Below are positions 9,169-42,900 of a stretch of 64,000 nt of DNA, piece after piece (the first letter of the stretch is position 1; each line of letters begins with the position of its first letter). Below the pieces are notes generated by a model. It did no database searches, was not told the DNA's origin, and saw only the letters and a list, made by a program, of their open reading frames with translations. The translations under genes and the position numbers were made by a program. The stretch comes from a virus (lineage: Duplodnaviria; Caudoviricetes). The stretch covers positions 2,575 through 66,574 of the IMG/VR virus record IMGVR_UViG_3300031853_000035, one strand, 5' to 3'.

Positions 9169-9293
9169 GAAGAGAAGGTAAACATATAGAACCTTAAGAC
9201 TACAACGATGTATAGGCATAGACCGAATACTAGTAGGTGGGCGCAAACCCCACTCTATATGTATAAGCAGTAGCGTGGCTCGCCTTCTCTTTC
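9169..9293 (+). ncRNA. Candidate structured small RNA (about 125 nt)
   Basis: gaagagaagg/ccttctcttt closing stem, acatataga/tctatatgt stem, gtggg-cgcaaac-cccac hairpin; no RBS-led ORF. Confidence 0.65.
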
Positions 9294-9358: not shown

Positions 9359-9383
9359 TCGCAAATATTACAGCGTCTATAAT
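9359..9383 (+). promoter_or_regulatory. Phage-specific promoter motif, copy 3
   Basis: TCGCA aatattaCAgcgtc TATAAT. Confidence 0.8.
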
Positions 9384-14687: not shown

Positions 14688-15242
14688 ATGGATAAAAACT
14701 GTTCAACATGCCTTTACTCTGCGCGTGGACATAAATACGAAGTGATTGAAGCGATTTGCAGAGAATGTGATCCAGAAAAATTTACGAACTGGCATCCAGA
14801 CTACAGAAGTATGCTTACCGTGGACTACAAGGACAAATGGGATAAATGCGCAGAGATATCTGAATATGCTTTCAATCGCATACGCGAAATGTTTGAGAAG
14901 AAAGGCTACGGGCCGCTTAATGATCAGGCTGTTAAAGCGGACGCTGGCAAGCCGAAGCTCACGTTGGTTCCCAGGCAGATTCTATTCGACGTTGCGAGAG
15001 TCAGAGAATACGGCAACAACAAGTATCCGGATGGCGGCGTAGATAATTGGAAGAACGTCGACGTACAACGGTACCGTGACGCTGCGTTCAGGCATTTCGT
15101 GGCATATCTTAACAATCCGTATGGCACGGATGAAGAGTCCGGACTGCCGCATCTTTGGCATCTGGCGTGTAATATTGCGTTTCTTTGCGAGATGGAGAAG
15201 GATGGGTACTGCTTAATTGGCGCGGAGGTAAAAGATGACTAA
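14688..15242 (+). CDS. dATP/dGTP diphosphohydrolase-domain protein (DUF5664-like) with a Cys-rich N-terminus
   Basis: KADAGKPKLTLVP...YGNNKY...NWK...AFRH...DEESGLPHLWHLACNIAFL. Confidence 0.8.
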   Translation: MDKNCSTCLYSARGHKYEVIEAICRECDPEKFTNWHPDYRSMLTVDYKDKWDKCAEISEYAFNRIREMFEKKGYGPLNDQAVKADAGKPKLTLVPRQILFDVARVREYGNNKYPDGGVDNWKNVDVQRYRDAAFRHFVAYLNNPYGTDEESGLPHLWHLACNIAFLCEMEKDGYCLIGAEVKDD

Positions 15243-21546: not shown

Positions 21547-21571
21547 TCGCAGAAAAAACAACCGCTATAAT
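21547..21571 (+). promoter_or_regulatory. Phage-specific promoter motif, copy 14
   Basis: TCGCA gaaaaaaCAaccgc TATAAT. Confidence 0.8.
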
Positions 21572-21641
21572 AGAGAACCAGATTTCGTATTGATTTCTAG
21601 TTCTTTTTATTTTTGTAGGCTTTCAAGAAAGGAGATCAAAA

Positions 21642-25167: not shown

Positions 25168-25298
25168 TATTAACATTGTTTACAATAATAGTAGCATGCA
25201 TCGCTATTAAAGTGGTGCTTGCTGTTTTTGGCTTTATATTTGGGCTTGCGGTTGTAGCGTTAGTGCTTATGGTGGCCTTATTTGCACTGTTCTTATAA
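25164..25298 (+). CDS. 44-aa almost entirely hydrophobic peptide
   Basis: MILTLFTIIVACIAIKVVLAVFGFIFGLAVVALVLMVALFALFL; ATGA overlap with the upstream stop. Confidence 0.6.
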   Translation: MILTLFTIIVACIAIKVVLAVFGFIFGLAVVALVLMVALFALFL

Positions 25299-25307
25299 GG
25301 AGAGAAT

Positions 25308-25931
25308 ATGGTTAAGGAGATAGTTATTGGATGCGCAGGCATAGCCATTGGATATTTTGCCGGGCGATACGTAACAAAGATCCATTATGAAGAAATAATG
25401 GAAAAAGAACGTAAAGATATGCGTGAATACTACGAGGGTAAACATCCGGAAAAGCCTCCGATGCCCGAGTATAGCATGACTCAGAATGTCGAAGTTCATA
25501 ACATGACAGAAGAGTATGTAAAGCCGAACAAGGTCGATTACACAAAGTATTATCAGACTGATCCTGCTGAAAGCGAGAGTCCCTCAGAGGATGCTCCGAG
25601 CGTGGATGAGGATGATCTTGGTGAAGTTATTACTGCCGACTATAAAAAGAATTCGAAAAAGCCGACCAAGATTATAAAAGCTGATGAATTTGGAGATCAA
25701 CCAGGATTTAATACAATGGAGCTTGTATATTATCAGGAGAATGAAGTCCTTACTCTTAAAGAGGGATCGGAAGAGGACATTATTTATTTTGATGAGATAG
25801 AAGATCTAATTGGCGATGCGCTTGTTAAATTTGGCTTTGCTGACAATGACGAGACATGTATATTTGTTCGAAATTATTCCAGAGGGTGTGATTTCGAAAT
25901 CATTAAGGTATTTGGAGCATTTGAAGGATAA
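25308..25931 (+). CDS. Membrane-anchored acidic hypothetical protein
   Basis: N-terminal helix IGCAGIAIGYFAG; AAGGAG RBS. Confidence 0.75.
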   Translation: MVKEIVIGCAGIAIGYFAGRYVTKIHYEEIMEKERKDMREYYEGKHPEKPPMPEYSMTQNVEVHNMTEEYVKPNKVDYTKYYQTDPAESESPSEDAPSVDEDDLGEVITADYKKNSKKPTKIIKADEFGDQPGFNTMELVYYQENEVLTLKEGSEEDIIYFDEIEDLIGDALVKFGFADNDETCIFVRNYSRGCDFEIIKVFGAFEG

Positions 25932-25951
25932 ACCTGCGGGAAAGGAGTTAA

Positions 25952-26440
25952 ATGCAGGATTTATATTTTGATTGGTTACTGTCTAAAGTTGATGGATGGC
26001 CGTACAGACAAGTGTGCGACTATCTGTACCATATTGAGTTTAGATGGGACTACACTATAGAACTTGATGGTGATCGGGCGGAGAAAGGAAAGGCTCTCCG
26101 CTATTTATATTTTACAGAAAAGCGACAGGATTCTGGCATGAGTGGAATGCCATGCACTGTTCTTGAAATGCTTGTTGCACTAGCAATAGACATGGAAAAC
26201 ATTATGGGAGAGCCCGGAAACGATCACCCGGAGCGATGGTTTAGTGATATGCTTTGTAACCTTGGCATAGCGAACAGTTTTAGCAGACAAGACATTGTTA
26301 ATAAGGTTGGTAGATGGATGGCAAGGGATTACATGCCTGACGGAAACGGCGGACTATTTCCGCTTAGTAATTCTCCAAACGATCAACGCAGATCACCAAT
26401 CTGGGCGCAAGCAGGACTTTATATGTGTGAACGAGTATAA
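25952..26440 (+). CDS. 162-aa hypothetical protein
   Basis: AAAGGAG RBS; YFDWLL...DRAEKG...PCTVLEMLVALA. Confidence 0.75.
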   Translation: MQDLYFDWLLSKVDGWPYRQVCDYLYHIEFRWDYTIELDGDRAEKGKALRYLYFTEKRQDSGMSGMPCTVLEMLVALAIDMENIMGEPGNDHPERWFSDMLCNLGIANSFSRQDIVNKVGRWMARDYMPDGNGGLFPLSNSPNDQRRSPIWAQAGLYMCERV

Positions 26441-26451
26441 GGAGGTAAATA

Positions 26452-26616
26452 ATGGCAGCATTTGTTAAAGGTGTTAGATTTGGCGTGTTTCTTGGCGGTG
26501 CAAGCTTAGGTTTTGCCGTTAGTGCTTTTGCCGTAAGCTTTTGTATTAGAGCGACTAAGATCGCCGTTAAGAAACTTACTAATTCAGCAGACAAAGAGGA
26601 GAGCAAAGATGAGTAA
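26452..26616 (+). CDS. 54-aa membrane peptide
   Basis: AAGGAGG RBS; GVFLGGASLGFAVSAFAV. Confidence 0.65.
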   Translation: MAAFVKGVRFGVFLGGASLGFAVSAFAVSFCIRATKIAVKKLTNSADKEESKDE

Positions 26617-26896
26617 ACCGAACTCGCACATTGATCTTACCAAAACGAACTATTTTGCAAATCTTAAACGCAAAGCTAAGAATCCAAAAGACACCAAAGA
26701 ACAGGCAGCAGTGAACATGGAGTTGCTTAATTGCGTTGATATTCTCGAAAAGAGAATTAAGACACTTGAGGCCGCCTTTGTGTCTCTTGGTGAAAAGCAT
26801 AACGAAGCGATGAAAGCTATTGCTAGTAACATGAATTACTTAAAAGCGTTGATGGAAAAAGATGAGTCTAACGGAGGTGAGCCGATGGATGCTTGA
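26609..26896 (+). CDS. 95-aa coiled-coil protein
   Basis: GAGGAG RBS; overlapping arrangement. Confidence 0.65.
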   Translation: MSKPNSHIDLTKTNYFANLKRKAKNPKDTKEQAAVNMELLNCVDILEKRIKTLEAAFVSLGEKHNEAMKAIASNMNYLKALMEKDESNGGEPMDA

Positions 26897-29800
26897 TTTT
26901 GCTAAGACCGTTACATCGGTCAAAGAAACAAGAAAAGAAAAGATCGTTAGGTTCTATACGAAGTTTATTGTAAACTATCGATCCAAGGACCTGATGATCA
27001 AGGGCGGAGACTTTTATGCTGTCTACAATAAAAATACAGGTATGTGGTCGACATGCGAGCAAGATGCCATTGATGCGTTCGATGCAGATCTATTGGAAAA
27101 GAGCAATAAGTATGTTGCGAAGCCTGGAGAAACCGTTGTGGTGGATTGGGTTTGGGATGCTGATACTAAAGCAATTGATAGGTGGCATAAGTTTGTTAAA
27201 GACCAGATGCGCGACAACTTTGTGCAGCTTGATCAGCGTATTATATTTGCAAACACAGAGGTAAAACGAGAAGACTATGCCAGTAAAAGGCTGCCGTATG
27301 AGCTTAAAGAGGGCCCGATTGATGCTTACGAGGAGCTTATAAGCACTTTGTACGATCCTGAGGAGCGAGAAAAAATAGAATGGGCTATTGGGGCTATCAT
27401 AACAGGAGACTCAAAGCGCATTCAAAAGTTCGAGGTTCTTTATGGTGATAAGGGTACTGGAAAGTCTACGATATTTGATAAGATCATCACGCCGCTATTT
27501 GATGGCTACATTAGCGTTTACGATGCCAAAGAACTGACAAGTGCTAGCAACGCGTTCGGCATGGAGTCGTTTAAGGACGGACCGCTTGTATCTATACAAG
27601 ACGATGGTGATCTTAGCAAAATCGAGAACAACACCAAGCTTAACTCTATTGTGTCTCATGCTAGAATGGAAGTTAACGCTAAGTACACAAAGATATTTAC
27701 AACCCAGTTTAATACATTTTTGTTCATGGGAACAAACAAGCCGGTTAAGATTACGGATGCAAAGTCGGGAATATTAAGGCGCCTTATCGACGTGCATCCA
27801 TCCGGCAGAAAGATCCCTTACAGAAAGTATCATCAACTGTGTAATCAAATAAAGTTTGAACTTGGCGGTATTGCGTGGCATTGTCTTCAGGTTTACAACG
27901 AGCTCGGTGAAGACTACTACGAGGATTATGTTCCACTGCGCATGATGGCGGCTACCAATGACTTCTACGGATTTATTGAGCACAACATCGACGAGTACGA
28001 GAAAAGCGATATGGTAACGCTTGCGGAAGCATGGAAGCAGTACGACGAGTATTGTACATTCGCTAATGCATACAAGATGCCGTATAGGATATTTCGTACA
28101 GAGCTCGGCAATTACTTTAAAGAGTTTAAAGAAAGGATGCAGATTAATGGAAAATACGTTAGAAGCGTGTATCTGGGATTTCGTAGCGAGAAGTTTGAAA
28201 ACCCAGAAAGGAAGAAACCTGATAAGAAAGGGCAGGAGTCTTGGCTTATATTTGATAAGAAAACATCCATATTTGATGAAATGTTTGCCAGCTGCCCTGC
28301 TCAAGGATGCAAAGAAGACGGCTCTCCACTTAGATCGTGGGCAAATGTTAAAGGAAGGCTATCTGAAATTGATACAGGTACTCTTCATTGGGTAAAGCCA
28401 CCAGTTAATCTCATATGCATTGACTTTGATATTAAAGGATTAGACGGAGAAAAAGACCTTGATGCTAATCTTAAGGCCGCTTCCATGTGGCCAAAGACGT
28501 ATGCGGAAGTGTCAAAAAGCGGAAAAGCCATCCATTTATATTACTATTATGATGGCGATGTGGAAAAATTATCATCTATTTATGCTCCGTATATCGAAAT
28601 TAAGGTCTTTACGGGAGGATCCGCACTTAGAAGGATGTTAACACTTTGCAATGGACTTGCTATTGCCACTATTAGCAGCGGCTTACCATTAAAGGAGAAA
28701 GGAAAAGTGCTTGATGATAACGTAATTAAGGATGAAAAACACCTTAGAGCCTGTGTTCTTAAGGCATTAAGGAAGGAAATTGAGCCAGGGTACACTTCAA
28801 CCTGCGTAAATTACATAAAAATGGTTACGGATCGCGCGTTTGAGGCAAATCTTGTCTATGATATTTCGGATTTGAGGCAGGCGGTGCTTCAATTTGCTAT
28901 GAAATCATCAAACCAGGCTGATCGATGCGTAAATTTGGTTGGTGAAATGCACTTTGAAGGTAAAAAACGGCCCGAAGTATTAACAGAAGCGGACATTATT
29001 TACAAATTTGAGAGCCGAAATAAGGACGGAAAGCTCGTTTTCTTTGATATTGAGATCTATAGACCAGACGAAAAGACCGATAATCCAGGTCTTTTTTTAA
29101 TTTGCTGGAAATACGAGAACGCTGATACCGTAAATTCCATGATAAATCCAGCTCCTTATGAGGTTGAAGAGCTATTTTCCATGCTTCTGGTCGGATTTAA
29201 CAATAGAAATTACGATAACGCAATGATTTGGGGCGCTTCTCTTGGTAAAACAAACCAGGAATTATACAATTTGAGCCAGGAAATCATTGTCGGGAACCAT
29301 AATCCTTATCCCGGATCAGCTGATGCATCATATTTAGACGTCTATGACATGTGTACGGAAAAGATGGGTCTTAAGAAATGGGAAATCAAGCTTGGGATCA
29401 CACATAAGGAAATGGGTATTCCTTGGGACGAGCCTGCGCCTAAGGATAGGTGGAATGATATTATCGAATACTGTACTAATGACGTTTTAGCCACAGAGGC
29501 GGTATTTCATGCAAGGCAAGGTGACTTTATGGCAAGAAAAATACAGGTCGCAATTGTCGAACTTCTTCATCCTGGCGAAGGCATTAAGGTATGTGTAAAC
29601 GATACCACCAATACATTGTCGAAGAGAATTATATTTGGCAGAAACAAGAAACCACAAAGCTCTTTTAACTATCGAGATCTGTCGAAACCAGTTGGGTCAG
29701 ACAGATATGAGGAGTATAGAGAACGATTTGGAGATGACTACAAGTTTAGAGTCTTCAATAGCGAAGGACTGCCTATGTACAGGGATTATATTCCTGGTGA

Positions 29801-31112
29801 AGTCCTTCCGGATGGTTGGTCTATTCTGCCGTTCTTTCCTGGTTACGAGTTTAAACGTAATGAAAAAGGAAAATGGGAAAGTACGTATCTTGGCGATGTG
29901 ATTGGCGAAGGTGGACGAACCTATTCTAGGAAAGGATATTATGAATGGGTATGGGACGGTGACGTTAGTTCTATGCATCCACATTCAATAATAGCCGAAT
30001 GTCTTTTCGGACCTGTATACACAAAGATATTTAAGGACATAGTTGACGGCAGAGTTGCAGTTAAGCATCATGACTTTGCAACAGCTGGTGCACTTCTTGA
30101 CGGAGCATTAGGTCCTTATTTGTCTGATGAGCACGCCGGCGATCTAGCTCAGGCACTAAAAATAGTTATAAATTCGATCTATGGGCTTACATCAGCAAAG
30201 TTTGAGAACGAATTTAGGGATCATAGAAACGTTGATAATATTGTTGCAAAGCGCGGCGCTCTGTTTATGACACTTCTTAAAAGAGAAGTTGAAAGACGGG
30301 GCGCTGTTGTTTGTCATATTAAGACCGATTCTATTAAGATTCCGAACGCTTCTGATGAAGTTAAAGACTTCGTTATCAAATTTGGAAGAGAGTTCGGCTA
30401 CGAATTCGAAACCGAAGATGTCTTTACGAAGTTCGCACTGTTTAATGACGCAGCGTACCTTGGATATTCTGAAAATGGTAAGTGGGTAACCAAGGCGGAT
30501 CAGTTTAAACAGGAAAAGCAGCCGTTTCTTTTTAAGACTCTCTTTAGTCATGAGCCATATGAGTTTCGTGATTATTGCGAGACAAAGTCTGTTAGTAAAG
30601 GCGCGCTGTATTTAGACATGAATGAAGATCTTGGCGAACCGGTTGACGCGGAGTATGAGAAAGCACTTAAGAAACTTGAAAGGCTGATGTCAAAAGGTGA
30701 TCCAAATGTTGGCGACTGGGCCAAGTATTGTGAGAAGCTTAAGACCGATATTCCAAATCATCATAACTTTGTCTTTATAGGACGTGTGGGTCAGTTTACT
30801 CCAATAAAAAAGGGATGCGGAGGCGGCGTGTTATACCGTAAGGACGGAGACGTACTTGCAGCAGCGACAGGATCTAAGGGATACAGGTGGCTTGAGAGCG
30901 AAACAGTAAAAGAGTATGGACGTATGGACGATATTGATATTTCTTATTACCAGAAAAAGGTAGATGAGGCAAGAAGTGTAATTAACGAAATTATTGACGT
31001 TGATTACTTTGTATCAGATCAAGTTCCAGAAAAAAACGTACTGAAAACGTTTGGCCTTCCAGATGATTTTATGAATATTCCGGAAGGCGTTGGCGATGAA
31101 ATACCGTTTTAA
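26889..31112 (+). CDS. Fused SF3 helicase - AEP primase - 3'-5' exonuclease - family B DNA polymerase
   Basis: GDKGTGKST (Walker A); ICIDFD...EVSKSGKAIH (AEP); FFDIEI, GFNNRNYD, YCTND (Exo I-III); DVSSMHP, KIVINSIYG, HIKTDS (PolB A/B/C); GGAGGTGA RBS before ATG 26889. Confidence 0.85.
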   Translation: MLDFAKTVTSVKETRKEKIVRFYTKFIVNYRSKDLMIKGGDFYAVYNKNTGMWSTCEQDAIDAFDADLLEKSNKYVAKPGETVVVDWVWDADTKAIDRWHKFVKDQMRDNFVQLDQRIIFANTEVKREDYASKRLPYELKEGPIDAYEELISTLYDPEEREKIEWAIGAIITGDSKRIQKFEVLYGDKGTGKSTIFDKIITPLFDGYISVYDAKELTSASNAFGMESFKDGPLVSIQDDGDLSKIENNTKLNSIVSHARMEVNAKYTKIFTTQFNTFLFMGTNKPVKITDAKSGILRRLIDVHPSGRKIPYRKYHQLCNQIKFELGGIAWHCLQVYNELGEDYYEDYVPLRMMAATNDFYGFIEHNIDEYEKSDMVTLAEAWKQYDEYCTFANAYKMPYRIFRTELGNYFKEFKERMQINGKYVRSVYLGFRSEKFENPERKKPDKKGQESWLIFDKKTSIFDEMFASCPAQGCKEDGSPLRSWANVKGRLSEIDTGTLHWVKPPVNLICIDFDIKGLDGEKDLDANLKAASMWPKTYAEVSKSGKAIHLYYYYDGDVEKLSSIYAPYIEIKVFTGGSALRRMLTLCNGLAIATISSGLPLKEKGKVLDDNVIKDEKHLRACVLKALRKEIEPGYTSTCVNYIKMVTDRAFEANLVYDISDLRQAVLQFAMKSSNQADRCVNLVGEMHFEGKKRPEVLTEADIIYKFESRNKDGKLVFFDIEIYRPDEKTDNPGLFLICWKYENADTVNSMINPAPYEVEELFSMLLVGFNNRNYDNAMIWGASLGKTNQELYNLSQEIIVGNHNPYPGSADASYLDVYDMCTEKMGLKKWEIKLGITHKEMGIPWDEPAPKDRWNDIIEYCTNDVLATEAVFHARQGDFMARKIQVAIVELLHPGEGIKVCVNDTTNTLSKRIIFGRNKKPQSSFNYRDLSKPVGSDRYEEYRERFGDDYKFRVFNSEGLPMYRDYIPGEVLPDGWSILPFFPGYEFKRNEKGKWESTYLGDVIGEGGRTYSRKGYYEWVWDGDVSSMHPHSIIAECLFGPVYTKIFKDIVDGRVAVKHHDFATAGALLDGALGPYLSDEHAGDLAQALKIVINSIYGLTSAKFENEFRDHRNVDNIVAKRGALFMTLLKREVERRGAVVCHIKTDSIKIPNASDEVKDFVIKFGREFGYEFETEDVFTKFALFNDAAYLGYSENGKWVTKADQFKQEKQPFLFKTLFSHEPYEFRDYCETKSVSKGALYLDMNEDLGEPVDAEYEKALKKLERLMSKGDPNVGDWAKYCEKLKTDIPNHHNFVFIGRVGQFTPIKKGCGGGVLYRKDGDVLAAATGSKGYRWLESETVKEYGRMDDIDISYYQKKVDEARSVINEIIDVDYFVSDQVPEKNVLKTFGLPDDFMNIPEGVGDEIPF

Positions 31113-31125
31113 AAGGAGAATAAAA

Positions 31126-31746
31126 ATGACACTTAAAGAAATGAAATATGGTTGGATGCTTGAGGATATTATGGAGGATCGGGACTTTAATAAGACTCAG
31201 ATCCGCTTTAAAAACATGGCAGGACGCCAGACAAACCCTAAGTACAATCCATCGCACGTTCTCGTTGTGTGGATCGATGATCCAAATGTTGCCAGATTTA
31301 TGAGGGACGAATTGCACCTTAACGTGCAGGAACGTGAAATTGAAATCAAAGACGAAAACGATAACGTCATTGATATTCAGAAACGCTCATCCCTGCAGCT
31401 TAAGGCTTACCCGAAGGTCAGGCAAAACCGTATTACCGGAAAAGACGAGTCTTATCCTAGGGTTATGCTTAAAACGCCTTCTACTGGGCGCAGCGTGCGT
31501 CTGGATATTGACAAGTTCGGCCTGTTTGATGCTACAAGGCTTCTTAGCGCAGATGTATCTTTTCATACATGGGAGTATGAGAGCGGAAAGTGCGTTGCCT
31601 GCATTGATGAGCTTTGGGCAATCGTTGATGAGAGCGCCGGAGAAGTTGATGGATCCTATCTTATGGATAAGTATGGATATTCTGAGGCAAACGAGCTTGC
31701 TGGTGTTGGAGTAGCCGAAAGCGAAGAAGAGGTGCCTTGGAACTAA
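31126..31746 (+). CDS. Probable single-stranded DNA-binding protein
   Basis: Follows the polymerase; IRFKNMAG...KYN; acidic C-tail ending EEEVPWN. Confidence 0.55.
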   Translation: MTLKEMKYGWMLEDIMEDRDFNKTQIRFKNMAGRQTNPKYNPSHVLVVWIDDPNVARFMRDELHLNVQEREIEIKDENDNVIDIQKRSSLQLKAYPKVRQNRITGKDESYPRVMLKTPSTGRSVRLDIDKFGLFDATRLLSADVSFHTWEYESGKCVACIDELWAIVDESAGEVDGSYLMDKYGYSEANELAGVGVAESEEEVPWN

Positions 31747-31766
31747 TAGCCTCTGTGATTGATATT

Positions 31767-31857
31767 TGTGGTGCCGGCTTCGCATGTTCGGTTAAATGTC
31801 CAGTGAGGTAAGCTTAATGAGCGCGCAACATTGGCTAAAGAGGAAACAGCCACATTT
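31767..31857 (+). ncRNA. Candidate structured intergenic RNA / 5' leader
   Basis: tgtgg/ccaca, gccg/cggt and ccagtg/cattgg nested stems. Confidence 0.4.
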
Positions 31858-31871
31858 AAAAGGAGATAGAG

Positions 31872-32069
31872 ATGAAGACAAAACATAATGTCGGTGATAT
31901 TGTTGCCGTTGTTTGCAGGGTAAAGTCGATTGAGGTTGATGGCTACGGCGAGAAGTACCATGTTATGATTAACCGCGCTGACGGCGCTCCCCCTTTGTAT
32001 GCTGACGTGTCCAGCTATAATGTACTGCCTCTAAATCAGGAGGATCCGGAAGTGGACGACCTTAAATGA
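31872..32069 (+). CDS. 65-aa hypothetical protein
   Basis: AAAAGGAG RBS. Confidence 0.65.
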   Translation: MKTKHNVGDIVAVVCRVKSIEVDGYGEKYHVMINRADGAPPLYADVSSYNVLPLNQEDPEVDDLK

Positions 32070-32281
32070 TAGGATCAGGGAGGCCAAAAACCGGGCGTCC
32101 AAAAGACGGAAGCTATAGGCAAGGCAGAAACAAAAAGCTATGCATTAGGCTTAGTGATGGTGATCTTAGGAAGCTAGAAGAGGTGTGTAATTACTATTAT
32201 ATTTCTAAGTCCGACTTTCTAATAGACGCTATCACTAGTGCCTTTAAGGAGGTAAAAAGGGGTGAAAAAGAAAGAAAGTAA
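32066..32281 (+). CDS. Ribbon-helix-helix DNA-binding protein
   Basis: GRPK N-terminus; LCIRLSDGDLRKLEEVC...ISKSDFL. Confidence 0.7.
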   Translation: MIGSGRPKTGRPKDGSYRQGRNKKLCIRLSDGDLRKLEEVCNYYYISKSDFLIDAITSAFKEVKRGEKERK

Positions 32282-32468
32282 AACTGCGCAATTGCATATT
32301 AGACTTACAGAAGAGGATAAAAACACGTTAGAGCGGCTTGCAAAAAGGAGAGGCGTTAGCATATCTCAATTCGTTACCGATTTAATTTATGAAAAAGATA
32401 GTGATATTATGCGCGAATTAATGTCAAAAGGCGACGTTATTGCCAACAACAACGGATATTTTTATTAA
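32262..32468 (+). CDS. Ribbon-helix-helix (CopG-like) DNA-binding protein
   Basis: QLHIRLTEEDKNTLERLAKRRGVSISQFV. Confidence 0.75.
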   Translation: MKKKESKTAQLHIRLTEEDKNTLERLAKRRGVSISQFVTDLIYEKDSDIMRELMSKGDVIANNNGYFY

Positions 32469-32469
32469 A

Positions 32470-32890
32470 TTTTGTGTACCAAAATCGAAAAAATGTGTAC
32501 CAAAACGAACATTTTGTGTACCAAAATCGAAAAAATGTGTACCAAAAAAGGCATTTTGTGTACACAAAAACGAAAAAATGGTACACAAAAATTGCATTTT
32601 GGTACACAAAAAAATGGCCATTTTTGGATTTTTTTCAAAATAAATGACACTTGACAGGTAAATGACACTTAAATGACACTAACTTTTTTGCCAAAATGTG
32701 ACAATATATTGTCACAAAAGGCTATTTTTGGGCTATTTTGACCTATTTTTGACCTATTTTTACCTATTTTTTACTGATTTTTATTAAAAAGTGTCAAGTG
32801 TCATTTATTTTCCCTAAAAGTTTTTATTTTTAAATAAAAAAATACATTTTTTTTTAGAAAAAGTTGGAAAAATAAATGACACATGACACT
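32470..32890. repeat. Putative replication origin: iterons, palindrome and AT-rich tract
   Basis: 36-bp perfect repeat at 32470 and 32512 (42-bp period, GTAC cores every ~21 bp); AAATGACACT x3 plus an inverted copy; perfect 20-bp palindrome at 32697..32716; CTATTTT x5. Confidence 0.8.
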
Positions 32891-32916
32891 AAGTGATTTT
32901 TGGAGGTAAAAACGAT

Positions 32917-34146
32917 GTGAGTGTGCAGCTAGACGACCAGCAGCTAAGAGCCATACAAGAACTGGATAACGGGTATATACTAAACGCCGATGTTGGAACT
33001 GGAAAGAGCAGAACGGCTGTCGGATATTATTACTTAAAGGTTTGTGAAGGCGGAGCAATCATTAACGGATCTGGCAAATTTAGAAAGATGAAACACCCAA
33101 GGGACCTTTATATTATTACAACAGCAAAAAAGCGAGATTCGATTGAATGGGATAAAGAGCTTGCCATGTTTCTTTTGTTTCGTGGTGAAAACAAAGAGAT
33201 GGGTGTTAACGTAACAATTGATTCTTGGAATAACATCAAGAAGTATAGGAAAACGTTTGGGGCGTTCTTTATATTTGATGAGCAACGGCTTAAAGGATCT
33301 GGTGCTTGGGTAAAGTCTTTCTATGACATTGCAAGAAAGAATAAGTGGGTTTTATTATCTGCCACACCTGGTGACACATGGCAGGATTATATTCCAGTGT
33401 TCGTTGCTAACGGGTTTTATCGTAACAAAAGTGACTTTAATATGCAGCATGTAAAGTTTGCAAGATTTAGTAAGTATCCAAAGATTGAGGGATATTTTAA
33501 TGAAGGCGTCTTGTTTAAACATAAAAAAGACATAACAGTTACGATGGAACTTGAGAAAGATGTGATTAAGCATTACGAAGATGTTTGGTGCTCTTATGAT
33601 AAGACTATTTATAGAACCATATGGAGAGATCGCATTAATCCATATGACGGAGAGCCAATAGAAGAAACTGGAAGCTTGTTCTATTTGATGAGAAGGGTGG
33701 TGAACTTAGATGTATCTCGGTTGGAGGCTGTTAGAGATATTGCTTCAAGGCATTCGAAAGTCATCGTCTATTACAATTTCACAGATGAGCTCCACGCACT
33801 TAGGGAACTATTTGCAAAGCTCGGCTTTGATATCGGAGAATGGAACGGCGAAGTACATTCTGACATACCAGGAGGATCAAAGTGGGCGTATCTCGTTCAG
33901 TATATCGCCGGATCTGAAGGATGGAACTGCATAGATACCAATGCGATGATATTTTACTCGCAGTCATATTCTTATTCACAAACTGTGCAAGCCGAAGGAA
34001 GGATAGACAGACGAAACACGCCGTTTGCTGATTTATATTACTACAAACTTAAAAGCAGGTCACCCATTGACCTTGCAATAGCGAGGGCTCTTAGTAAGAA
34101 AAAGAACTTTAATGAAAAGACATTTGTTGAAAGGAGAACAAAATGA
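32917..34146 (+). CDS. SF2 (SNF2-like) helicase
   Basis: DVGTGKS, FIFDEQR, LLSATP, SEGWN, QAEGRIDR. Confidence 0.88.
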   Translation: MSVQLDDQQLRAIQELDNGYILNADVGTGKSRTAVGYYYLKVCEGGAIINGSGKFRKMKHPRDLYIITTAKKRDSIEWDKELAMFLLFRGENKEMGVNVTIDSWNNIKKYRKTFGAFFIFDEQRLKGSGAWVKSFYDIARKNKWVLLSATPGDTWQDYIPVFVANGFYRNKSDFNMQHVKFARFSKYPKIEGYFNEGVLFKHKKDITVTMELEKDVIKHYEDVWCSYDKTIYRTIWRDRINPYDGEPIEETGSLFYLMRRVVNLDVSRLEAVRDIASRHSKVIVYYNFTDELHALRELFAKLGFDIGEWNGEVHSDIPGGSKWAYLVQYIAGSEGWNCIDTNAMIFYSQSYSYSQTVQAEGRIDRRNTPFADLYYYKLKSRSPIDLAIARALSKKKNFNEKTFVERRTK

Positions 34147-34313
34147 CAGAGGTTGAAATTTACAATGAAGTAAGGCGTATGAGGAAAGATAATCCTGGAA
34201 TTACCGGAAAAGAGATGGCCGAAAAGCTAGGCGTTAAAAATACTTACGGCGAGGCATCAGTCGTAGAGATTAGACGATTATATTCTCTTGGGGCCATTAA
34301 AGCAAAAGGGTAA
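34143..34313 (+). CDS. 56-aa HTH protein resembling the first HTH of the RNAP candidate
   Basis: KDNPGITGKEMAEKLGVKN versus AKYPGITELELAERLGVYN; GAAAGGAG RBS. Confidence 0.65.
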   Translation: MTEVEIYNEVRRMRKDNPGITGKEMAEKLGVKNTYGEASVVEIRRLYSLGAIKAKG

Positions 34314-34322
34314 TAGAACAGT

Positions 34323-34351
34323 TTGACACATTGCTTGTGGATGTATATACT
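34323..34351 (+). promoter_or_regulatory. Near-consensus host sigma-A promoter
   Basis: TTGACA-17 nt-TATACT. Confidence 0.75.
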
Positions 34352-34373
34352 CTTAAAAAAAGGAGGTGCGCTT

Positions 34374-34616
34374 ATGAGCAATGTGTTTTGTTACTATGAT
34401 CATGAGTATCAGTTTATAGAAACTGAGCTTGATGAAGAGGCTGCTGAAATTATAGAGGATCAGGTTAACTCTGGACGCTGCGCTGATTGTAACAGACCAA
34501 TTCTTGATTGGGGAGATGACGCTAATAAGTTTACAGATCTGACTTTAGAATTCCCAATGCCAGTAAATGTTTGCTACAAATGTGCAGCGAGAGCGTTCAA
34601 AGAAGGTAGGATGTAA
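34374..34616 (+). CDS. 80-aa acidic zinc-ribbon protein
   Basis: AAAGGAGG RBS; CADC and CYKC pairs. Confidence 0.7.
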   Translation: MSNVFCYYDHEYQFIETELDEEAAEIIEDQVNSGRCADCNRPILDWGDDANKFTDLTLEFPMPVNVCYKCAARAFKEGRM

Positions 34617-34638
34617 AACAATTATTATATTTTTGCCC

Positions 34639-34663
34639 TCGCAAAAAAAACAACTCCTATAAT
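34639..34663 (+). promoter_or_regulatory. Phage-specific promoter motif, copy 16 (upstream of the RNAP operon)
   Basis: TCGCA aaaaaaaCAactcc TATAAT. Confidence 0.8.
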
Positions 34664-34667
34664 AGAG

Positions 34668-34713
34668 AGAGAAGGGAGAACCGAATTTTATTGGTTTTTT
34701 TCCTTCTCTTTTT
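34668..34713 (+). terminator. Promoter-proximal hairpin + T-tract (attenuator-like)
   Basis: agagaagggagaacc...ggtttttttccttctct followed by TTTT. Confidence 0.55.
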
Positions 34714-34732
34714 GTTTTTAAAGGAGGTTTTT

Positions 34733-35059
34733 ATGGGACTTGAAAGTAATTTTCAAAGAAAGCTTAAAGCTGAGATCAAGGAACGTTATCCGGGATGCTA
34801 TGTTCTAAAAAACGATCCAACTTATATTCAGGGAATCCCAGATCTTACAATCCTCTATAAAGATACTTGGGCAGCGCTCGAAGTTAAAAAAGACAAAGCC
34901 ACTGCTATGTCAGCAATGAAAGGCAAAAGCGGTGGAAGACCAAATCAGCCATTACACGTCGCTAGGATGAATGAGATGTCCTATGCGGCGTTTATTTATC
35001 CAGAAAACAAGGAGGATATTTTTAATGAGCTTGATAGGAAATTCGGCGTATCGAGGTGA
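34733..35059 (+). CDS. VRR-NUC domain nuclease
   Basis: LESNFQ...GIPDLTIL...ALEVKK...NQ. Confidence 0.8.
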   Translation: MGLESNFQRKLKAEIKERYPGCYVLKNDPTYIQGIPDLTILYKDTWAALEVKKDKATAMSAMKGKSGGRPNQPLHVARMNEMSYAAFIYPENKEDIFNELDRKFGVSR

Positions 35060-35720
35060 GCATGCAACGTTCAGCCCAAGCACTGTGTCATGGATTCACT
35101 ATAGCGATGAACAGTTTATGGATGCTCTTAAGAATAAATATAGAGCACAGATAGGAACTGAGATTCATGAATACGCTGCTATTCAGATAACGCTTGGTCA
35201 GAAGTGTTCATCTGTTAGAGAGATGGCCAAAGGGATTAAGACCTTTATATTTAGAAAGTATTATACAGATAAATATGGTCTTTCCGAACTTGGTAGAACT
35301 TTGCTTCAGAACATGAAATATATTCCAAATGAAGTATATGGAACGCTGAAGGCATACATTAATGATAGTATTGCTTACTTTATGGTTCCTGAGGAATGCG
35401 AGGGTGTTACAGATTACTCTAAAGACTTCTTTGGAACATGCGACGCATTATATTTTGAATCTAAGTCAAAGACGCTTAGAATCTTTGATCTTAAAACTGG
35501 GTCTAGGCCGGCTAAGATAGAGCAGGTATTTATTTATGCCGCACTTTATTGTCTACGAAACAAGGTTGACCCTTATGATATTTCGTTTGATCTTAGGGTT
35601 TACCAAAACGAAGAAGTAATTATAGCAGATCAGAACCCGGATCTTGTAAGGCAGTTTATGGATACGATTATCAGGTTTGACGCTATGGTCAGGAAGCATA
35701 ATAAAGGAGGTGCTATATGA
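35025..35720 (+). CDS. PD-(D/E)XK exonuclease (Cas4/RecB-like, DUF2800-like)
   Basis: HATFSPS, GTEIHE, FGTCDAL, IFDLKTG, QVFIYAALY. Confidence 0.75.
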   Translation: MSLIGNSAYRGEHATFSPSTVSWIHYSDEQFMDALKNKYRAQIGTEIHEYAAIQITLGQKCSSVREMAKGIKTFIFRKYYTDKYGLSELGRTLLQNMKYIPNEVYGTLKAYINDSIAYFMVPEECEGVTDYSKDFFGTCDALYFESKSKTLRIFDLKTGSRPAKIEQVFIYAALYCLRNKVDPYDISFDLRVYQNEEVIIADQNPDLVRQFMDTIIRFDAMVRKHNKGGAI

Positions 35721-38700
35721 TCGATCGTGAAGCTCTTCTTTATTTTGTTGATGACGATGAAGATTATATTATGCATTATGGCGTTGGCTGGGATGAAAAC
35801 CCGCCAGGAAGAGGATCTGGTAGATATCCGCATGGATCTGGAGAATTACCTTATCAGCGAAGTGTTGATTTTTATGAACGTGTGCAGTTCCTTAAAGCTA
35901 AGTATCCCGGAATTACTGAACTTGAACTTGCAGAAAGACTTGGCGTTTACAATCGAAGCGGAGTCAATAGAGGAAAGCCGTCTACTACCGAGTTCCGTAA
36001 GAAGCTCTCTGCTGCTACGCAGCTTAGAAAAGCAGCACTTATATCTGAGGCCCAGTCTTTAAAAGAGACGGGCATGTCAAATGTTGATATTGGCAAGCAG
36101 ATGGGTGTTAATGAGTCAGTCGTAAGAAGCTGGTTGTCTGAAGGCCGGTCCGATAGAGCAAATGCATCTATGAAAACGTCCGAGGTTCTTAAAGACTTTG
36201 TCGATAGAAATAAGTATGTTGATATTGGTCCCGGAACAAACTATGCATTTGGTGTAAGTGAAGGCCGGTTTGACACTGCGGTTCATCTTCTTGAAGAGCA
36301 GGGCTATAAAAAGCAGTTCCTTCAGATTGATCAAATGGGTACTGATCATAAAACAACGCTTACGGTTCTTACGAAACCTGATGTTGATTATGCTGAGCTT
36401 AGCGAGAACCGGTTTGATATTCGCTCGCCATTAGTTGCTAATAAGGTCATTGATTCAAAAGGTGACGTTACAGCACTTGGCGTGTCTACAGAGCTTCCTA
36501 GTGTTAGTTCTGACAGAATTATGGTTAATTATGATTCACCAAAGGATGGCCTTGTAGAACTTAGACGAGGCGTAGATGACATTTCTCTTGGAAAAAAGAA
36601 CTATGCTCAGGTTCGAATTGCTGTGGACGGCAGCCATTATATTAAGGGAATGGCTGTGTACAGCGACGACATGCCAAAAGGAGTTGACATTATCTTCAAC
36701 ACCAATAAAAAAGAAGGAACACCATTATATTCTAATGATCCCGATGCCAAGCAGGTGTTAAAACCGATGAAAACAATTAAAGATAGAGACGGTAAAGTAA
36801 TTGGTATCGATTGGGACAATCCGTTTGGCGCCTCTATTGACAAAGATTCAGAAATTATGACAACGGTTGGCAAATACATTGGAAAAGATGGTAAAGAGCA
36901 TATTTCAGCAATTAATGTTGTCAGAGAAGAAGGCGACTGGATGAAATGGGACAAAAACCTTGCATCACAGTATCTTTCAAAGCAGCCATTAAAGACTGCA
37001 GAAAGACAGCTTGCTCTTACAGCTGCAGATAAACGATACGAGCTTGACGAAATAAAAGCGCTTGATAATCCTACGGTTAAAAAGAAGCTTTTAATAGCAT
37101 ATGCTGATAAATGTGATGCTCTTGCGGTTGACTTAAAAGCTGCCCCGTTTAGAGATCAGCAAACTCATGTACTGCTTCCGTCTCCAGATCTTAGTGATAA
37201 TGAAATCTATGCCCCAAAATACAAAGATGGAACAAGGGTTGCTCTTGCTAGATATCCGTTTGCCGGTCCGTTTGAGTCTCCTGAGCTTACGGTGAGAAAC
37301 ACAGGATCTCCTGCGCAGAAGATGATACCGATGTCTTCTCCAGATGCCGTTGTTATATCTAAAAAGCGATTGGACCAGATGTCTGGAGCAGACTGTGATG
37401 GCGATACCGCTATTGTTATTCCGCTTAGCGATAAAGTTAAGGTCAGGACGGCAAAAGACACACTCAAAGAGCTTAAAGGATTCGACCCCAAAGAGCAGTA
37501 TGCTGGATATCCTGGGATGCCAATCGCTAAGCATCAGACGCTTCAGACCGAAATGGGCAAGGTTTCGAATCTTATAACTGACATGTATCAGCAGAATGCT
37601 CCAGATTCTGATATTGCTAAGGCGGTCAGACATTCGATGGTTGTTATCGATGCTGAAAAGCATAAGCTTGACTGGAAAAGGTCAGAGAAAGATAACCAGA
37701 TATTGGAGCTTAAGCAGATCTACCAGAACCATGGTGATGGAAAGACCGGAGCATCCACAATTATATCTAGGGCTAGCTCTGACTACTTAGTTGATCAGCG
37801 TAAGGATTGGCGCCCAAGTAAAGGTAGCGAAAAGAGCCCTGCTACCATTGATGAAGAAGGTAATAAATTATATTCTTTAACCGGTGGTACATATAAAGAA
37901 GGTAAGTTAAATCTTAAAGGCGTAAAGCTTACTAGTGGAGACACCGTTAACCTGTCGTACGATAAGGATAATGGATTATATTTTACGAAAAGAGAAGGTA
38001 AGACATCTACAAGAAATTATATTTCAGATGACGACCTTCCAGAACGTCTTCGTGGCCTGTCCATTAAGCAAGGCGGATGGATAAATGTCAACGAGGATAA
38101 GAAGAGTGGGCAATTATATTTTCTCAAGACTGATACAAACACTGGAAAGAAGACCAGGGTGTATGTATCTGACGGCGATCTTCTTGATACCAAGGAAACT
38201 GTTCGTCAACAAAAGAGTACCAAGATGGCTGAGGCTACGGACGCGTATAAATTAACATCCGGAGGCAGTAAGGAGAATCCTGGATATCCTATGGAGAAGG
38301 TGTACGCGGAGTTCGCCAATAATATGAAGGACCTCGCTAGAGAAGCTAGACGGGAGTGGATGCGGACCGGAAACCTTGAGTATCATCCAGAGGCTTATAA
38401 GAAGTATAAGACAGAAGTGGACTCTCTTAACGAAAAACTTCAGCAGGCCCTTGCAAATGCACCATTTGAGAGGCAGGCCCAGCTTATGGCAAACCGGACC
38501 ATGGCTATAAAGAAGTTTGAAAATCCAGACATGTCAAGAGAAGAAGCTAAAAAGAAGCGTGGTCAAGCCATTGTTGCGGCTAGAACCAAACTTGGCAGTA
38601 AAAAGAAACAGATACAGATAACGGACAAAGAGTATGAGGCTATTCGTGCTGGTGCCATATCAGAAAGTAAGCTTACTAAGATCATGGACAACGCAGACCT

Positions 38701-38879: not shown

Positions 38880-39179
38880 ATGGCTGCTTGCATGGCTACA
38901 ACCATTGACAATCCATACAATCCTTTCACTCACTTTGATGAATGGTATGTGTATGATCAGTCGCATGGTTACAATACTTGTGGCCTTGTTGCTTATTTTA
39001 ATGAAGCATCACGCTTTATGGAAGAAGAAGACTATGAGTTTGAGACAAATGAAGCTATCAATAAGCTTTTGGAACTCAATCCGTATAATCTTCACATGAA
39101 AGTGTATGAAAAAGATGCTGACAAGTTCATAGCTTTGGCAAATAAAGCTTATGACGAACAAAAAGATGCAAAACAGTAA
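38880..39179 (+). CDS. 99-aa hypothetical protein
   Basis: GAAAGGAGG RBS; TTIDNPYNPFTHFDEW. Confidence 0.75.
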   Translation: MAACMATTIDNPYNPFTHFDEWYVYDQSHGYNTCGLVAYFNEASRFMEEEDYEFETNEAINKLLELNPYNLHMKVYEKDADKFIALANKAYDEQKDAKQ

Positions 39180-39361
39180 TGGTATCTTACGTTTTTAATT
39201 CTAACCCAACCATGTTTTATAACGATTAATCTAATTTTAAGACTAATCGTTGACTATTCTTCATTTTTAATCCTTTCTTACACGTTAGACATCCCTTGAT
39301 CCATAATTAAACTCTGTATTATGCAAGTATAGAGTCTAATTATGGTCTCGGGACGTCTAAC

Positions 39362-39460
39362 AAAAAGGGGGAGGGGGGGGTCTAAAATATGGCACCCCCT
39401 TTTGCATCGCGGTCGGTCCTAAAAAATTCTCCGCGGGATATTTTTTGAGAACTTTTCAAG
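39362..39460. other. Putative packaging (cos/pac) region, including a copy of the second-class motif
   Basis: G-run and C-run inverted repeat (aaaagggg/cccctttt) in the non-coding gap before the TerS-like and HNH genes. Confidence 0.45.
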
Positions 39461-41994: not shown

Positions 41995-42900
41995 ATGGCT
42001 ATTTACTACGAAAGCTATTACGGTGTTTCATCTCTTGGCGATGACTATTTAATGCACCACGGCATCAAAGGTATGAAGTGGGGTGTTAGACGATACCAGA
42101 ATCCTGACGGGTCTCTTACCGGAGCTGGCAGACTTAGATACGGGATAGCGGAAGGTGCTAAGAAAGTCGGGCAGGCTGCGGCAGCAGCAGGCAAAGGCGC
42201 AAAGAAAGCTTATGTGACAGTTGACCGTGCGCTTGGTAAATGGGCGGCCAAACGTGGCGACGCGGCTTCTTTTCAGAAACATTCAAAGAATTTCACGACA
42301 GAAGAAGTGGCCGATATGGTTAAACGCATCAATACGATGCAGTCTATTGATGATCTAAAAAATAGACGTTCTGCTAATAATGCGGCCAGATTTACCAGAA
42401 ACATTCAGACTATTGGTCTTGCTATTAATACTGGCGTTGCTGTTGGTAAAGCGGCAAAAGGCTTCGTCAAATGGGTTGCTAAGGACAAGGATAAAGAGGC
42501 TTGGAAGGCGGCTAGCGAAAAGCAAGAGGCAGCCATCGTTAAAGACGTGCGAGATAGCGTTATGAAGAATGGAGGCAGTGCGGCAGAGGCAAGTAGAGAA
42601 GCTCAGAAAGCGTTGAAAGAATGGCGCAACGCAAAGCCTAGCTCCTCTGATAATAAATCTGGATCATTCTTAGACCGTGATACGAAATTAAAGCAGGTTG
42701 ACAGCATTTATAGCGAACTAAGCAATAAAAAGCGTAGACAAAACGTACCAATAATTCGCTCAAACGTCGTTCTAAAGAAACCAGTCGAGGACATTGCGAC
42801 AAGAACGTACTCATGGTCGACCGATAGCGATAATCGTCGTTCATATATTGATTATATGAAACTAGCTAACAGGAAAAAGAAGAAAGATAGCGATGATTGA
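41995..42900 (+). CDS. Basic protein with HHGIKGMKWGVRR motif (putative internal virion protein)
   Basis: DDYLMHHGIKGMKWGVRRYQNPDGSLT; Lys/Ala-rich. Confidence 0.7.
   Translation: MAIYYESYYGVSSLGDDYLMHHGIKGMKWGVRRYQNPDGSLTGAGRLRYGIAEGAKKVGQAAAAAGKGAKKAYVTVDRALGKWAAKRGDAASFQKHSKNFTTEEVADMVKRINTMQSIDDLKNRRSANNAARFTRNIQTIGLAINTGVAVGKAAKGFVKWVAKDKDKEAWKAASEKQEAAIVKDVRDSVMKNGGSAAEASREAQKALKEWRNAKPSSSDNKSGSFLDRDTKLKQVDSIYSELSNKKRRQNVPIIRSNVVLKKPVEDIATRTYSWSTDSDNRRSYIDYMKLANRKKKKDSDD

Follow-up and report, generated by a model that had tools for sequence, protein, structure and literature searches.

How does a phage keep in check an RNA polymerase gene that is most likely transcribed by its own product? 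The question is raised by a 64,000-nucleotide (nt) stretch of DNA, hereafter the window, which covers positions 2575–66574 of the complete virus record IMGVR_UViG_3300031853_000035 (66,574 bp with a 111-bp terminal repeat). The best DNA match is a bovine gut metagenome, which points to a cattle-gut phage, and the + strand carries all the large open reading frames of the window. The element considered here, at 34639–34719, consists of a phage promoter motif followed directly by a terminator-like hairpin, and would be the promoter and leader of an endonuclease–exonuclease–RNA polymerase operon. In the reading that we favour, although with no better than even confidence, it is an attenuator and insulator close to the promoter of a polymerase operon that is transcribed by its own product and probably feeds the late genes as well. 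An initial annotation of the window had listed at this junction a host-type promoter at 34323, a small gene, copy 16 of the phage motif, a hairpin with a T-tract and the genes downstream, and all of these elements are present where it placed them (Table 1).

The placing of a phage promoter copy in front of the polymerase operon, noted in that annotation for this phage, turned out to be family-wide. Polymerase loci were taken from three partly overlapping collections, and the motif was found to head the operon, 0.9–1.3 kb ahead of the polymerase start, in 37 of the 76 IMG/VR relatives, 30 of the 55 metagenome relatives and 56 of the 77 relatives from GTDB genomes. A hairpin (−7 kcal/mol or below) plus a T-run within 70 nt of that motif followed in 25/37, 26/30 and 41/56 cases, respectively, as against only 17 of the 282 other motif copies (Fisher p = 2e-17). 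The number of related phages and prophages with this layout of motif and then hairpin is well above one hundred. Such recurrence makes it very probable that the leader genuinely controls the polymerase, and likely that it controls the late genes behind the polymerase too. Three of the junction elements are conserved and do not stand there by chance. The positive autoregulation suggested in the initial annotation, with the motif heading the polymerase operon, is well supported as an architecture, and so is the attenuator-like leader, which is conserved, specific to this operon and placed as an attenuator would be.

The motif is a sharply defined element in this phage. There are exactly 16 copies in the window, all on the + strand, and no site scored between 10 and 29 bits with the position weight matrix (PWM), which was built from the copies of this phage alone. 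A hairpin with a T-run follows two of the 16 copies (34639 and 21547). The leader of the copy at 21547, a paralog of the one studied here, has a weaker hairpin (−9.3 kcal/mol) with a T-run and lacks the outer stem; it precedes one of three DUF6353/phrog_2152 paralogs (19704, 21642 and 24205). The hairpin at 34664–34713 has a folding energy of −23.6 to −29.3 kcal/mol and a z-score of −3.3 to −5.4, varying with the ends chosen, and ranks among the strongest terminator-like sites of the + strand. With the U-run that follows this stable stem-loop on the transcribed strand, 34664–34719 bears the signature of an intrinsic terminator. An Rfam search of 34200–34800 gave nothing near any gathering score, and the contigs of four bovine or goat gut DNA runs held no informative variation at the junction.

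Intrinsic terminators are dense where the motif promoters are dense, at 6–25 kb, usually in the order terminator and then promoter, and the + strand scan found none from 25224 to 34667. This clustering suggests that the motif-reading enzyme responds to terminators. It also bears on the idea that the hairpin merely ends the upstream replication operon, has been displaced past the promoter by overlap and is ignored by the phage polymerase. In many relatives the motif does overlap the final codons of the preceding gene, be it the helicase or a different one; in this phage, however, there is room between the stop at 34616 and the motif at 34639, and yet the order is kept. Moreover, the 5′ arm is anchored to the end of the TATAAT box, the six bases after which are purines in 40/40 polymerase-operon leaders, and some 14 terminators that close motif-driven units would be left unexplained if the polymerase ignored terminators. 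We consider this passive role highly improbable.

The arms of the hairpin had been reported to recur in a small RNA at 9169, and this proved correct: GAGAAGG occurs at 9172 and 34669, and CCTTCTC is found on the + strand only at 9283 and 34702. The arms are shared because both RNAs start with the common purine run of the promoter and close on its complement. The pairing in trans that had been thought conceivable on this basis did not hold up, since a dimer of the leader with the 9169 RNA is favoured by only −1.3 kcal/mol relative to the self-folded monomers and ranks 26th of 511 windows.

The start site was deduced from the placement of Shine-Dalgarno (SD) sequences. In 22 of the 318 motif copies, including the copy at 9359 of this phage, an SD sequence with a start codon and an open frame begins 1–5 nt after the box, and in three of them at the very first base after it, compared with 0/223 control TATAAT boxes having an SD sequence 1–5 nt downstream. 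The box is therefore not a −10 element of the σ70 type with a start 7 nt further on, and we infer that the first transcribed base is 34664 or one just after it, where the box ends. With such a start, the whole hairpin would lie in the operon's own transcript, the 5′ end included. T7-type promoters are alike in that the start is at the end of a TATA-like box with a purine run directly after it. A ‘self-immune terminator’, in which the phage's own transcripts would start inside the 5′ arm and so escape, was set aside, as the SD placement puts the start at the box end.

The enzyme that reads the motif is most likely the two-barrel polymerase encoded by the phage. Besides the geometry just described, this assignment follows from the lack of a −35 element at a spacing of 16–18 nt in the motif copies, from the presence of the motif in Firmicutes phages as well as Actinobacteria phages and from its co-occurrence with the polymerase. 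Scanning IMG/VR for the motif gave many 57–61-kb contigs with several copies, and all five complete motif-bearing contigs that were tested encode the polymerase (43–49% identity), with the gene at the contig end. The polymerase carries helix-turn-helix (HTH) modules at its N- and C-terminal ends (HTH_23 and Sigma70_r4 matches) and has at least about 8000 relatives.

The leader appears to be an RNA element. G·U pairs make up 15% of the stem pairs, and the sense strand folds better than the antisense strand in 66/79 leaders, a comparison that is biased because the hairpin ends were picked on the sense strand. Both properties speak for an RNA rather than for an operator in the DNA. No sequence is shared by the stems of different clades. 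Among cultured Gordonia phages, the homologous stem, as taken from single-sequence folds, covaries (GGGCAACC/GGTGCC, GGGCG/CGCCC, GGGTA/TACCC, AGGAC/GTCCT and AGGCC/GGCCT). RNAalifold applied to a MAFFT alignment of the Gordonia leaders returned zero pairs, with the stems misaligned, and in one Firmicutes subfamily it gave double changes at only 2/15 pairs. The cultured carriers of the element are the Gordonia phages Tanis, which is identical to one IMG/VR record, and Kenosha, together with Rhodococcus phage ReqiPoco6, which has the same layout ahead of gp104–gp106. At the Gordonia loci L375–L384 and L137, the leader on the 3′ side of a small 5′ hairpin is near-invariant before the VRR-Nuc gene (CCATGCA..CTGCATTCTACTTTTT..GATCTGGGAGG), which suggests a second conserved leader element in that clade.

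An RNA hairpin at the 5′ end could also act only as a stabiliser, guarding the polymerase mRNA from 5′-end-dependent decay (RNase J or pyrophosphohydrolase) or tuning translation, with the T-run being compositional and causing little termination. We regard this as unlikely, although some points speak for it: the hairpin starts 0–5 nt after the box in 20 of the 25 scored leaders, with the putative transcript start at the box end, and the relatives Mossy, Fazel, Secretariat and Schwartz33 from high-GC hosts keep the stem without the T-run. Actinobacterial terminators, however, often lack U-runs, and this weakens the last point. In AT-rich relatives a T-run (at least five T in eight) abuts the stem in 54% of cases vs a baseline of 19%, and the leader resembles the unit-ending terminators of the same genome, both of which count against a stabiliser alone.

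Several observations nevertheless count against an attenuator and insulator. Several Gordonia phages have lost the T-run and kept the hairpin, which fits a 5′ stem-loop better than a terminator. Between 30 and 45% of the relatives have no motif score at this site, although the PWM was trained on one phage and ‘no motif’ in distant relatives is therefore weak evidence. The promoter overlaps the end of the upstream gene in many relatives, so that the order of promoter and then terminator could partly be a by-product of gene packing. Finally, the two-barrel polymerase lacks the flap, which cellular enzymes require for their response to hairpin terminators (YonO paper, PMC5467207).

Downstream of the leader, no motif occurs anywhere from 34719 onwards, the late region being free of copies in the PWM scan, and no strong terminator is found until 41346 and then 50584. 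The packaging and structural genes have neither a phage-type promoter nor a near-consensus host-type promoter of their own. Among the 75 relatives with DNA past the polymerase, the motif was detected within 3.9 kb downstream in five vs 52 upstream, and the genes downstream of the polymerase are co-oriented in these relatives. The promoter of the polymerase operon is thus the last of its kind before the packaging and structural genes, and it probably feeds the late genes also.

The polymerase operon ends with a 99-aa gene, after which come a cos-like G-run and the HNH, terminase, portal and tail genes. In ReqiPoco6, a mapped cos end lies right after gp107, the equivalent small gene. The non-coding stretch 39180–39445 contains a G-run at ~39365–39381 beside a C-rich complement, which by synteny with ReqiPoco6 is likely the cos site. 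By the same synteny the polymerase operon forms the right end of the packaged genome, and it adjoins the structural genes only when the DNA is circular, concatemeric or integrated as a prophage.

With a promoter, a terminator and a long co-oriented, motif-free block placed behind a gene for a protein with four cysteines (four-Cys), the layout is like that of Q, PR′, tR′ and the late genes in phage lambda. It might accordingly be a late gate of the lambda kind, with an efficient leader terminator and with the polymerase and late genes switched on only when a phage factor suppresses it. The four-Cys protein made from the host-type promoter, or a 56-aa HTH paralog encoded just before it, would be the candidate for this factor. 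The leader, however, occurs throughout the family, and the four-Cys gene was found in only three phages. Other relatives have no conserved candidate factor beside the leader, and no similarity to Q proteins was detected. We find a gate of this kind improbable. In a somewhat broader form, which we still hold to be distinctly unlikely, the leader would be the single gate to both the polymerase gene and the late block, run by the four-Cys protein and/or the free copy of the HTH module as a Q-like or immunity-like switch. If true, a gated leader with adjacent small proteins would explain how a temperate member of the family stays silent.

The host-type promoter in front of the four-Cys gene is very probably real. 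Its pattern is the sole 11/12 match in the 64 kb on either strand; shuffled sequences contain 0.82 such matches per strand, with at least one in 56% of shuffles, and on its own the pattern is not significant. The judgement rests on its recurrence, together with the gene and an SD-hiding hairpin, in the closest relatives compared (L223 and L266, polymerase 53–54% identical; the polymerases of P0002–P0005 are closer still, at 65–77%). In both, TTGACC-17-TATAAT (11/12) follows directly after the helicase stop, at the same place as the 34323 promoter, and is succeeded by a gene for a 111- or 124-aa four-Cys protein, the motif, a hairpin and the endonuclease gene. In the phage studied here, the −10 element ends 9 nt before the SD sequence of the small gene. 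The hairpin that pairs the promoter with the SD sequence and start codon holds a 10-bp perfect repeat (34327–34336/34377–34386). RNA that includes the promoter is strongly structured in all three phages (z = −6.3 in this phage, −3.2 in L223 and −5.3 in L266), with differing sequences, whereas RNA from the predicted +1 is unstructured (z = 0.2, −0.3 and −1.1, respectively). The presence of an SD-hiding hairpin in three phages speaks for a working promoter and for a small protein whose intended source is host-polymerase transcripts only. Matches of at least 10/12 to the σ70-type consensus are depleted on the + strand (4 vs 11.1 ± 3.7 in shuffles), and the other strand has 8.

The initial annotation had this promoter drive a zinc-ribbon gene. 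The promoter is very probably real, as stated above, and the four cysteines (C36, C39, C67 and C70) and the motif P-x-N-x-C-x-x-C are invariant across the three proteins, but no zinc-ribbon family could be assigned. The protein matched no Pfam or PHROG family, a single-protein scan of IMG/VR gave no matches, and a profile search recovered the three known members and no others. For the L266 protein, the DZR and zinc_ribbon_16 matches stayed below threshold. The Atlas model of the protein is poor (predicted local distance difference test 0.50), and its Atlas matches are unnamed phage clusters only.

The 56-aa protein resembles the first N-terminal HTH-like module of the polymerase (BLASTP, 39% over 49 aa, pairwise E = 3e-7) and has weak HTH_11 and HTH_24 matches below the Pfam cut-offs. 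It could be a competitor or a helper of the polymerase at its promoters. The gene is absent from the L223 and L266 junctions.

According to the initial annotation, host polymerase starting at 34323 leaks past the hairpin, the first phage polymerase then amplifies itself, and the junction could be the lysis/lysogeny decision. This circuit has points in its favour. Host-type promoters are depleted in this genome, and the one at 34323 is the sole near-consensus example and is conserved in L223 and L266; the first polymerase of a prophage must come from the host enzyme; and an integrase is encoded here and in none of the four complete relatives without the cassette, a sample too small to weigh. 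In most relatives, however, the helicase or another gene is directly followed by the motif without a host-promoter cassette, and relatives integrated in the genomes of Butyrivibrio, Cuneatibacter, Faecalibacterium and Lachnospiraceae lack the cassette too. One of the strongest terminators of the genome separates the 34323 promoter from the polymerase gene, and the translational gate marks the small protein, not the polymerase, as the product of this promoter. Seeding by read-through of host polymerase is hence possible in this phage but not general, the cassette being clade-specific. For a lysis/lysogeny switch neither a repressor nor an operator was found, and that part of the proposal is not supported. 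The circuit as a whole seems to us quite doubtful.

In the attenuator and insulator mechanism that we propose, the two-barrel polymerase would read the motif at 34639 and so transcribe its own gene. Transcription would begin at the end of the TATAAT box and open with the purine run; about 30 nt on, the complementary pyrimidine run would emerge and form a hairpin that includes the 5′ end of the RNA. When the polymerase reaches the U-run, a fraction of the transcripts would stop as a ~50-nt RNA and the rest would continue, with the hairpin probably shielding their 5′ end. Placed in this way, the leader may block transcription that enters from the replication genes or was started at the host-type promoter (34323), and may throttle both the self-amplifying polymerase loop and the co-oriented packaging and structural genes, which would be reached across the joined genome ends. 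Upstream, the host-type promoter would serve the small four-Cys protein. The hairpin that contains this promoter would mask the ribosome site in RNA derived from further upstream, so that only host-made transcripts would be translated.

Table 1 Coordinates of the features at the polymerase-operon junction and of related features elsewhere in the window
Feature	Position	Strand	Remarks
Promoter motif copy 14 with leader, paralog of the polymerase-operon promoter and leader	21547–21613	+	90% identity over 30 nt
PolB–primase fusion	26862–31112	+	
Helicase	32893–34146	+	
56-aa gene	34143–34313	+	ATG overlaps helicase stop; stand-alone paralog of polymerase residues 50–98
Putative σA/σ70-type promoter, TTGACA-17-TATACT	34323–34351	+	11/12 match; predicted start ~34358
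Predicted hairpin pairing promoter −35/spacer with SD and ATG of the small gene	34325–34387	+	−26.4 kcal/mol, z = −6.3
Four-Cys protein gene, 80 aa, CxxC...CxxC, putative zinc ribbon	34374–34616	+	ATG 34374, good ribosome binding site
Phage promoter motif copy 16 of 16, TCGCA-N7-CA-N5-TATAAT	34639–34663	+	PWM 34.6 bits
Leader, intrinsic-terminator-like hairpin	34664–34719	+	5′ homopurine arm 34664–34684; pyrimidine 3′ arm 34691–34713; T-run 34709–34719
Endonuclease	34733–35059	+	phrog_93, E = 1e-11; SD 34720–34727
Cas4/RecB-type exonuclease	34971–35720	+	phrog_3953, E = 5e-46; DUF2800
YonO/RdRP (RNA-dependent RNA polymerase)-like RNA polymerase, single-chain two-barrel, 1048 aa	35717–38863	+	phrog_4291, E = 1e-293
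99-aa gene, last of the polymerase operon	38880–39179	+	Position equals 1706 gp76/ReqiPoco6 gp107

Some further features of the window were recorded. Homologues of the endonuclease in cultured Gordonia phages carry a VRR-Nuc domain annotation. In the 250-nt gap ahead of the helicase gene lies an array of ~21-nt direct repeats (32469–32601, core TGTGTACCAAAA) that looks like replication-origin iterons; a similarly repeat-rich gap occurs in Gordonia relatives, but on the 3′ side of their helicase. A 301-aa protein encoded before the terminase (41995–42900) has an N-terminal DUF7211 motif (E = 8e-12) that is weakly similar to the N-terminus of the polymerase (35717–35850; DDY(L/I)MH(H/Y)G, pairwise E = 5e-4), and a polymerase relative (P0025) has DUF7211 in its precomputed Pfam list. 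The motif may be an N-terminal tag shared by the 301-aa protein and the polymerase. A 184-aa amidase-type protein (14688–15242) matches the PHROG entry ‘endolysin; inhibits RNA polymerase’, which is T7-lysozyme-like (E = 3e-15); since the phage polymerase is unrelated to that of T7, this protein is probably only a lysin.

In the T7 group, the host promoters A1–A3 transcribe gene 1, and the phage polymerase then takes over. The junction is similar in that, close to a genome end, a phage polymerase gene is preceded by a host-type promoter. In contrast to this junction, gene 1 of T7 has neither a dedicated T7 promoter nor a preceding terminator, whereas here a strong terminator lies between the host promoter and the polymerase gene; the polymerases are also unrelated. 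In phage T4, the genes e, soc, 49 and I-TevI have a late promoter inside a hairpin that hides the SD sequence in early read-through RNA. The hairpin at 34325–34387 is analogous in that it hides the SD sequence and ATG with its 5′ arm in the promoter, so that only promoter-started transcripts would be translatable, an arrangement present in three phages. The polarity is reversed, however: the promoter in the hairpin is host-type here, and the read-through RNA would come from phage-type promoters. Virion RNA polymerases are a further class, represented by that of N4 and by gp66 of the crAss-like phage phi14:2. A GenBank note that likens ReqiPoco6 gp106, a homologue of the polymerase, to the ‘1706_gp75 structural protein’ hints that the polymerase may be carried in the virion; if true, no host seeding would be needed on infection.

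The arrangement of lambda PR′, 6S RNA, tR′ and Q is similar in that a promoter is followed almost immediately by an intrinsic terminator ahead of a long co-oriented late block that lies across the joined cos ends, with a small Cys-containing gene just upstream. It differs from the element described here in several respects. Neither a Q-like protein nor a pause/Q-binding element was identified here, the promoter is not host-type, the polymerase itself is encoded among the first genes behind the gate, and the terminator starts at +1 instead of about +190. At the T7 Tφ terminator, only those abortive transcripts that pair with the 5′ half of the terminator were effective in antitermination (PMC2952870). 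The leader is comparable in that its initial transcripts are purine-rich and complementary to the C+U stretch of the terminator stem, and an effect of this type would grow with the polymerase level. Antitermination of the T7 kind is unlikely here, however, as the C+U stretch is the 3′ half of the stem and has its partner already in cis.

The branch of two-barrel polymerases that comprises 1706, FP_oengus and the actinophages has been predicted from sequence alone (PMC2919709; bioRxiv 10.1101/842583), and for this branch no promoter, start site, terminator response or regulation was found in the searchable literature. The junction thus offers a conserved test object, with a candidate promoter and its deduced start and a terminator-like leader specific to the polymerase's own operon, and its layout suggests that the same promoter feeds the late genes. 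Because the element sits in the cultured phages Tanis, Kenosha and ReqiPoco6, these predictions are directly testable, and they bear on whether a polymerase lacking the flap and most cellular accessory domains recognises hairpin terminators. A further comparison is SPbeta, whose late genes form one operon with a single transcription start, located ahead of an unannotated non-coding RNA (PMC5467207). The polymerase described here belongs to the same YonO/RdRP-like two-barrel group as SPbeta YonO. It is, however, a member of the 1706/FP_oengus/actinophage branch with HTH modules, and in contrast to SPbeta its phage has 16 promoters, mostly in the early region, with the polymerase gene itself located behind one of them.

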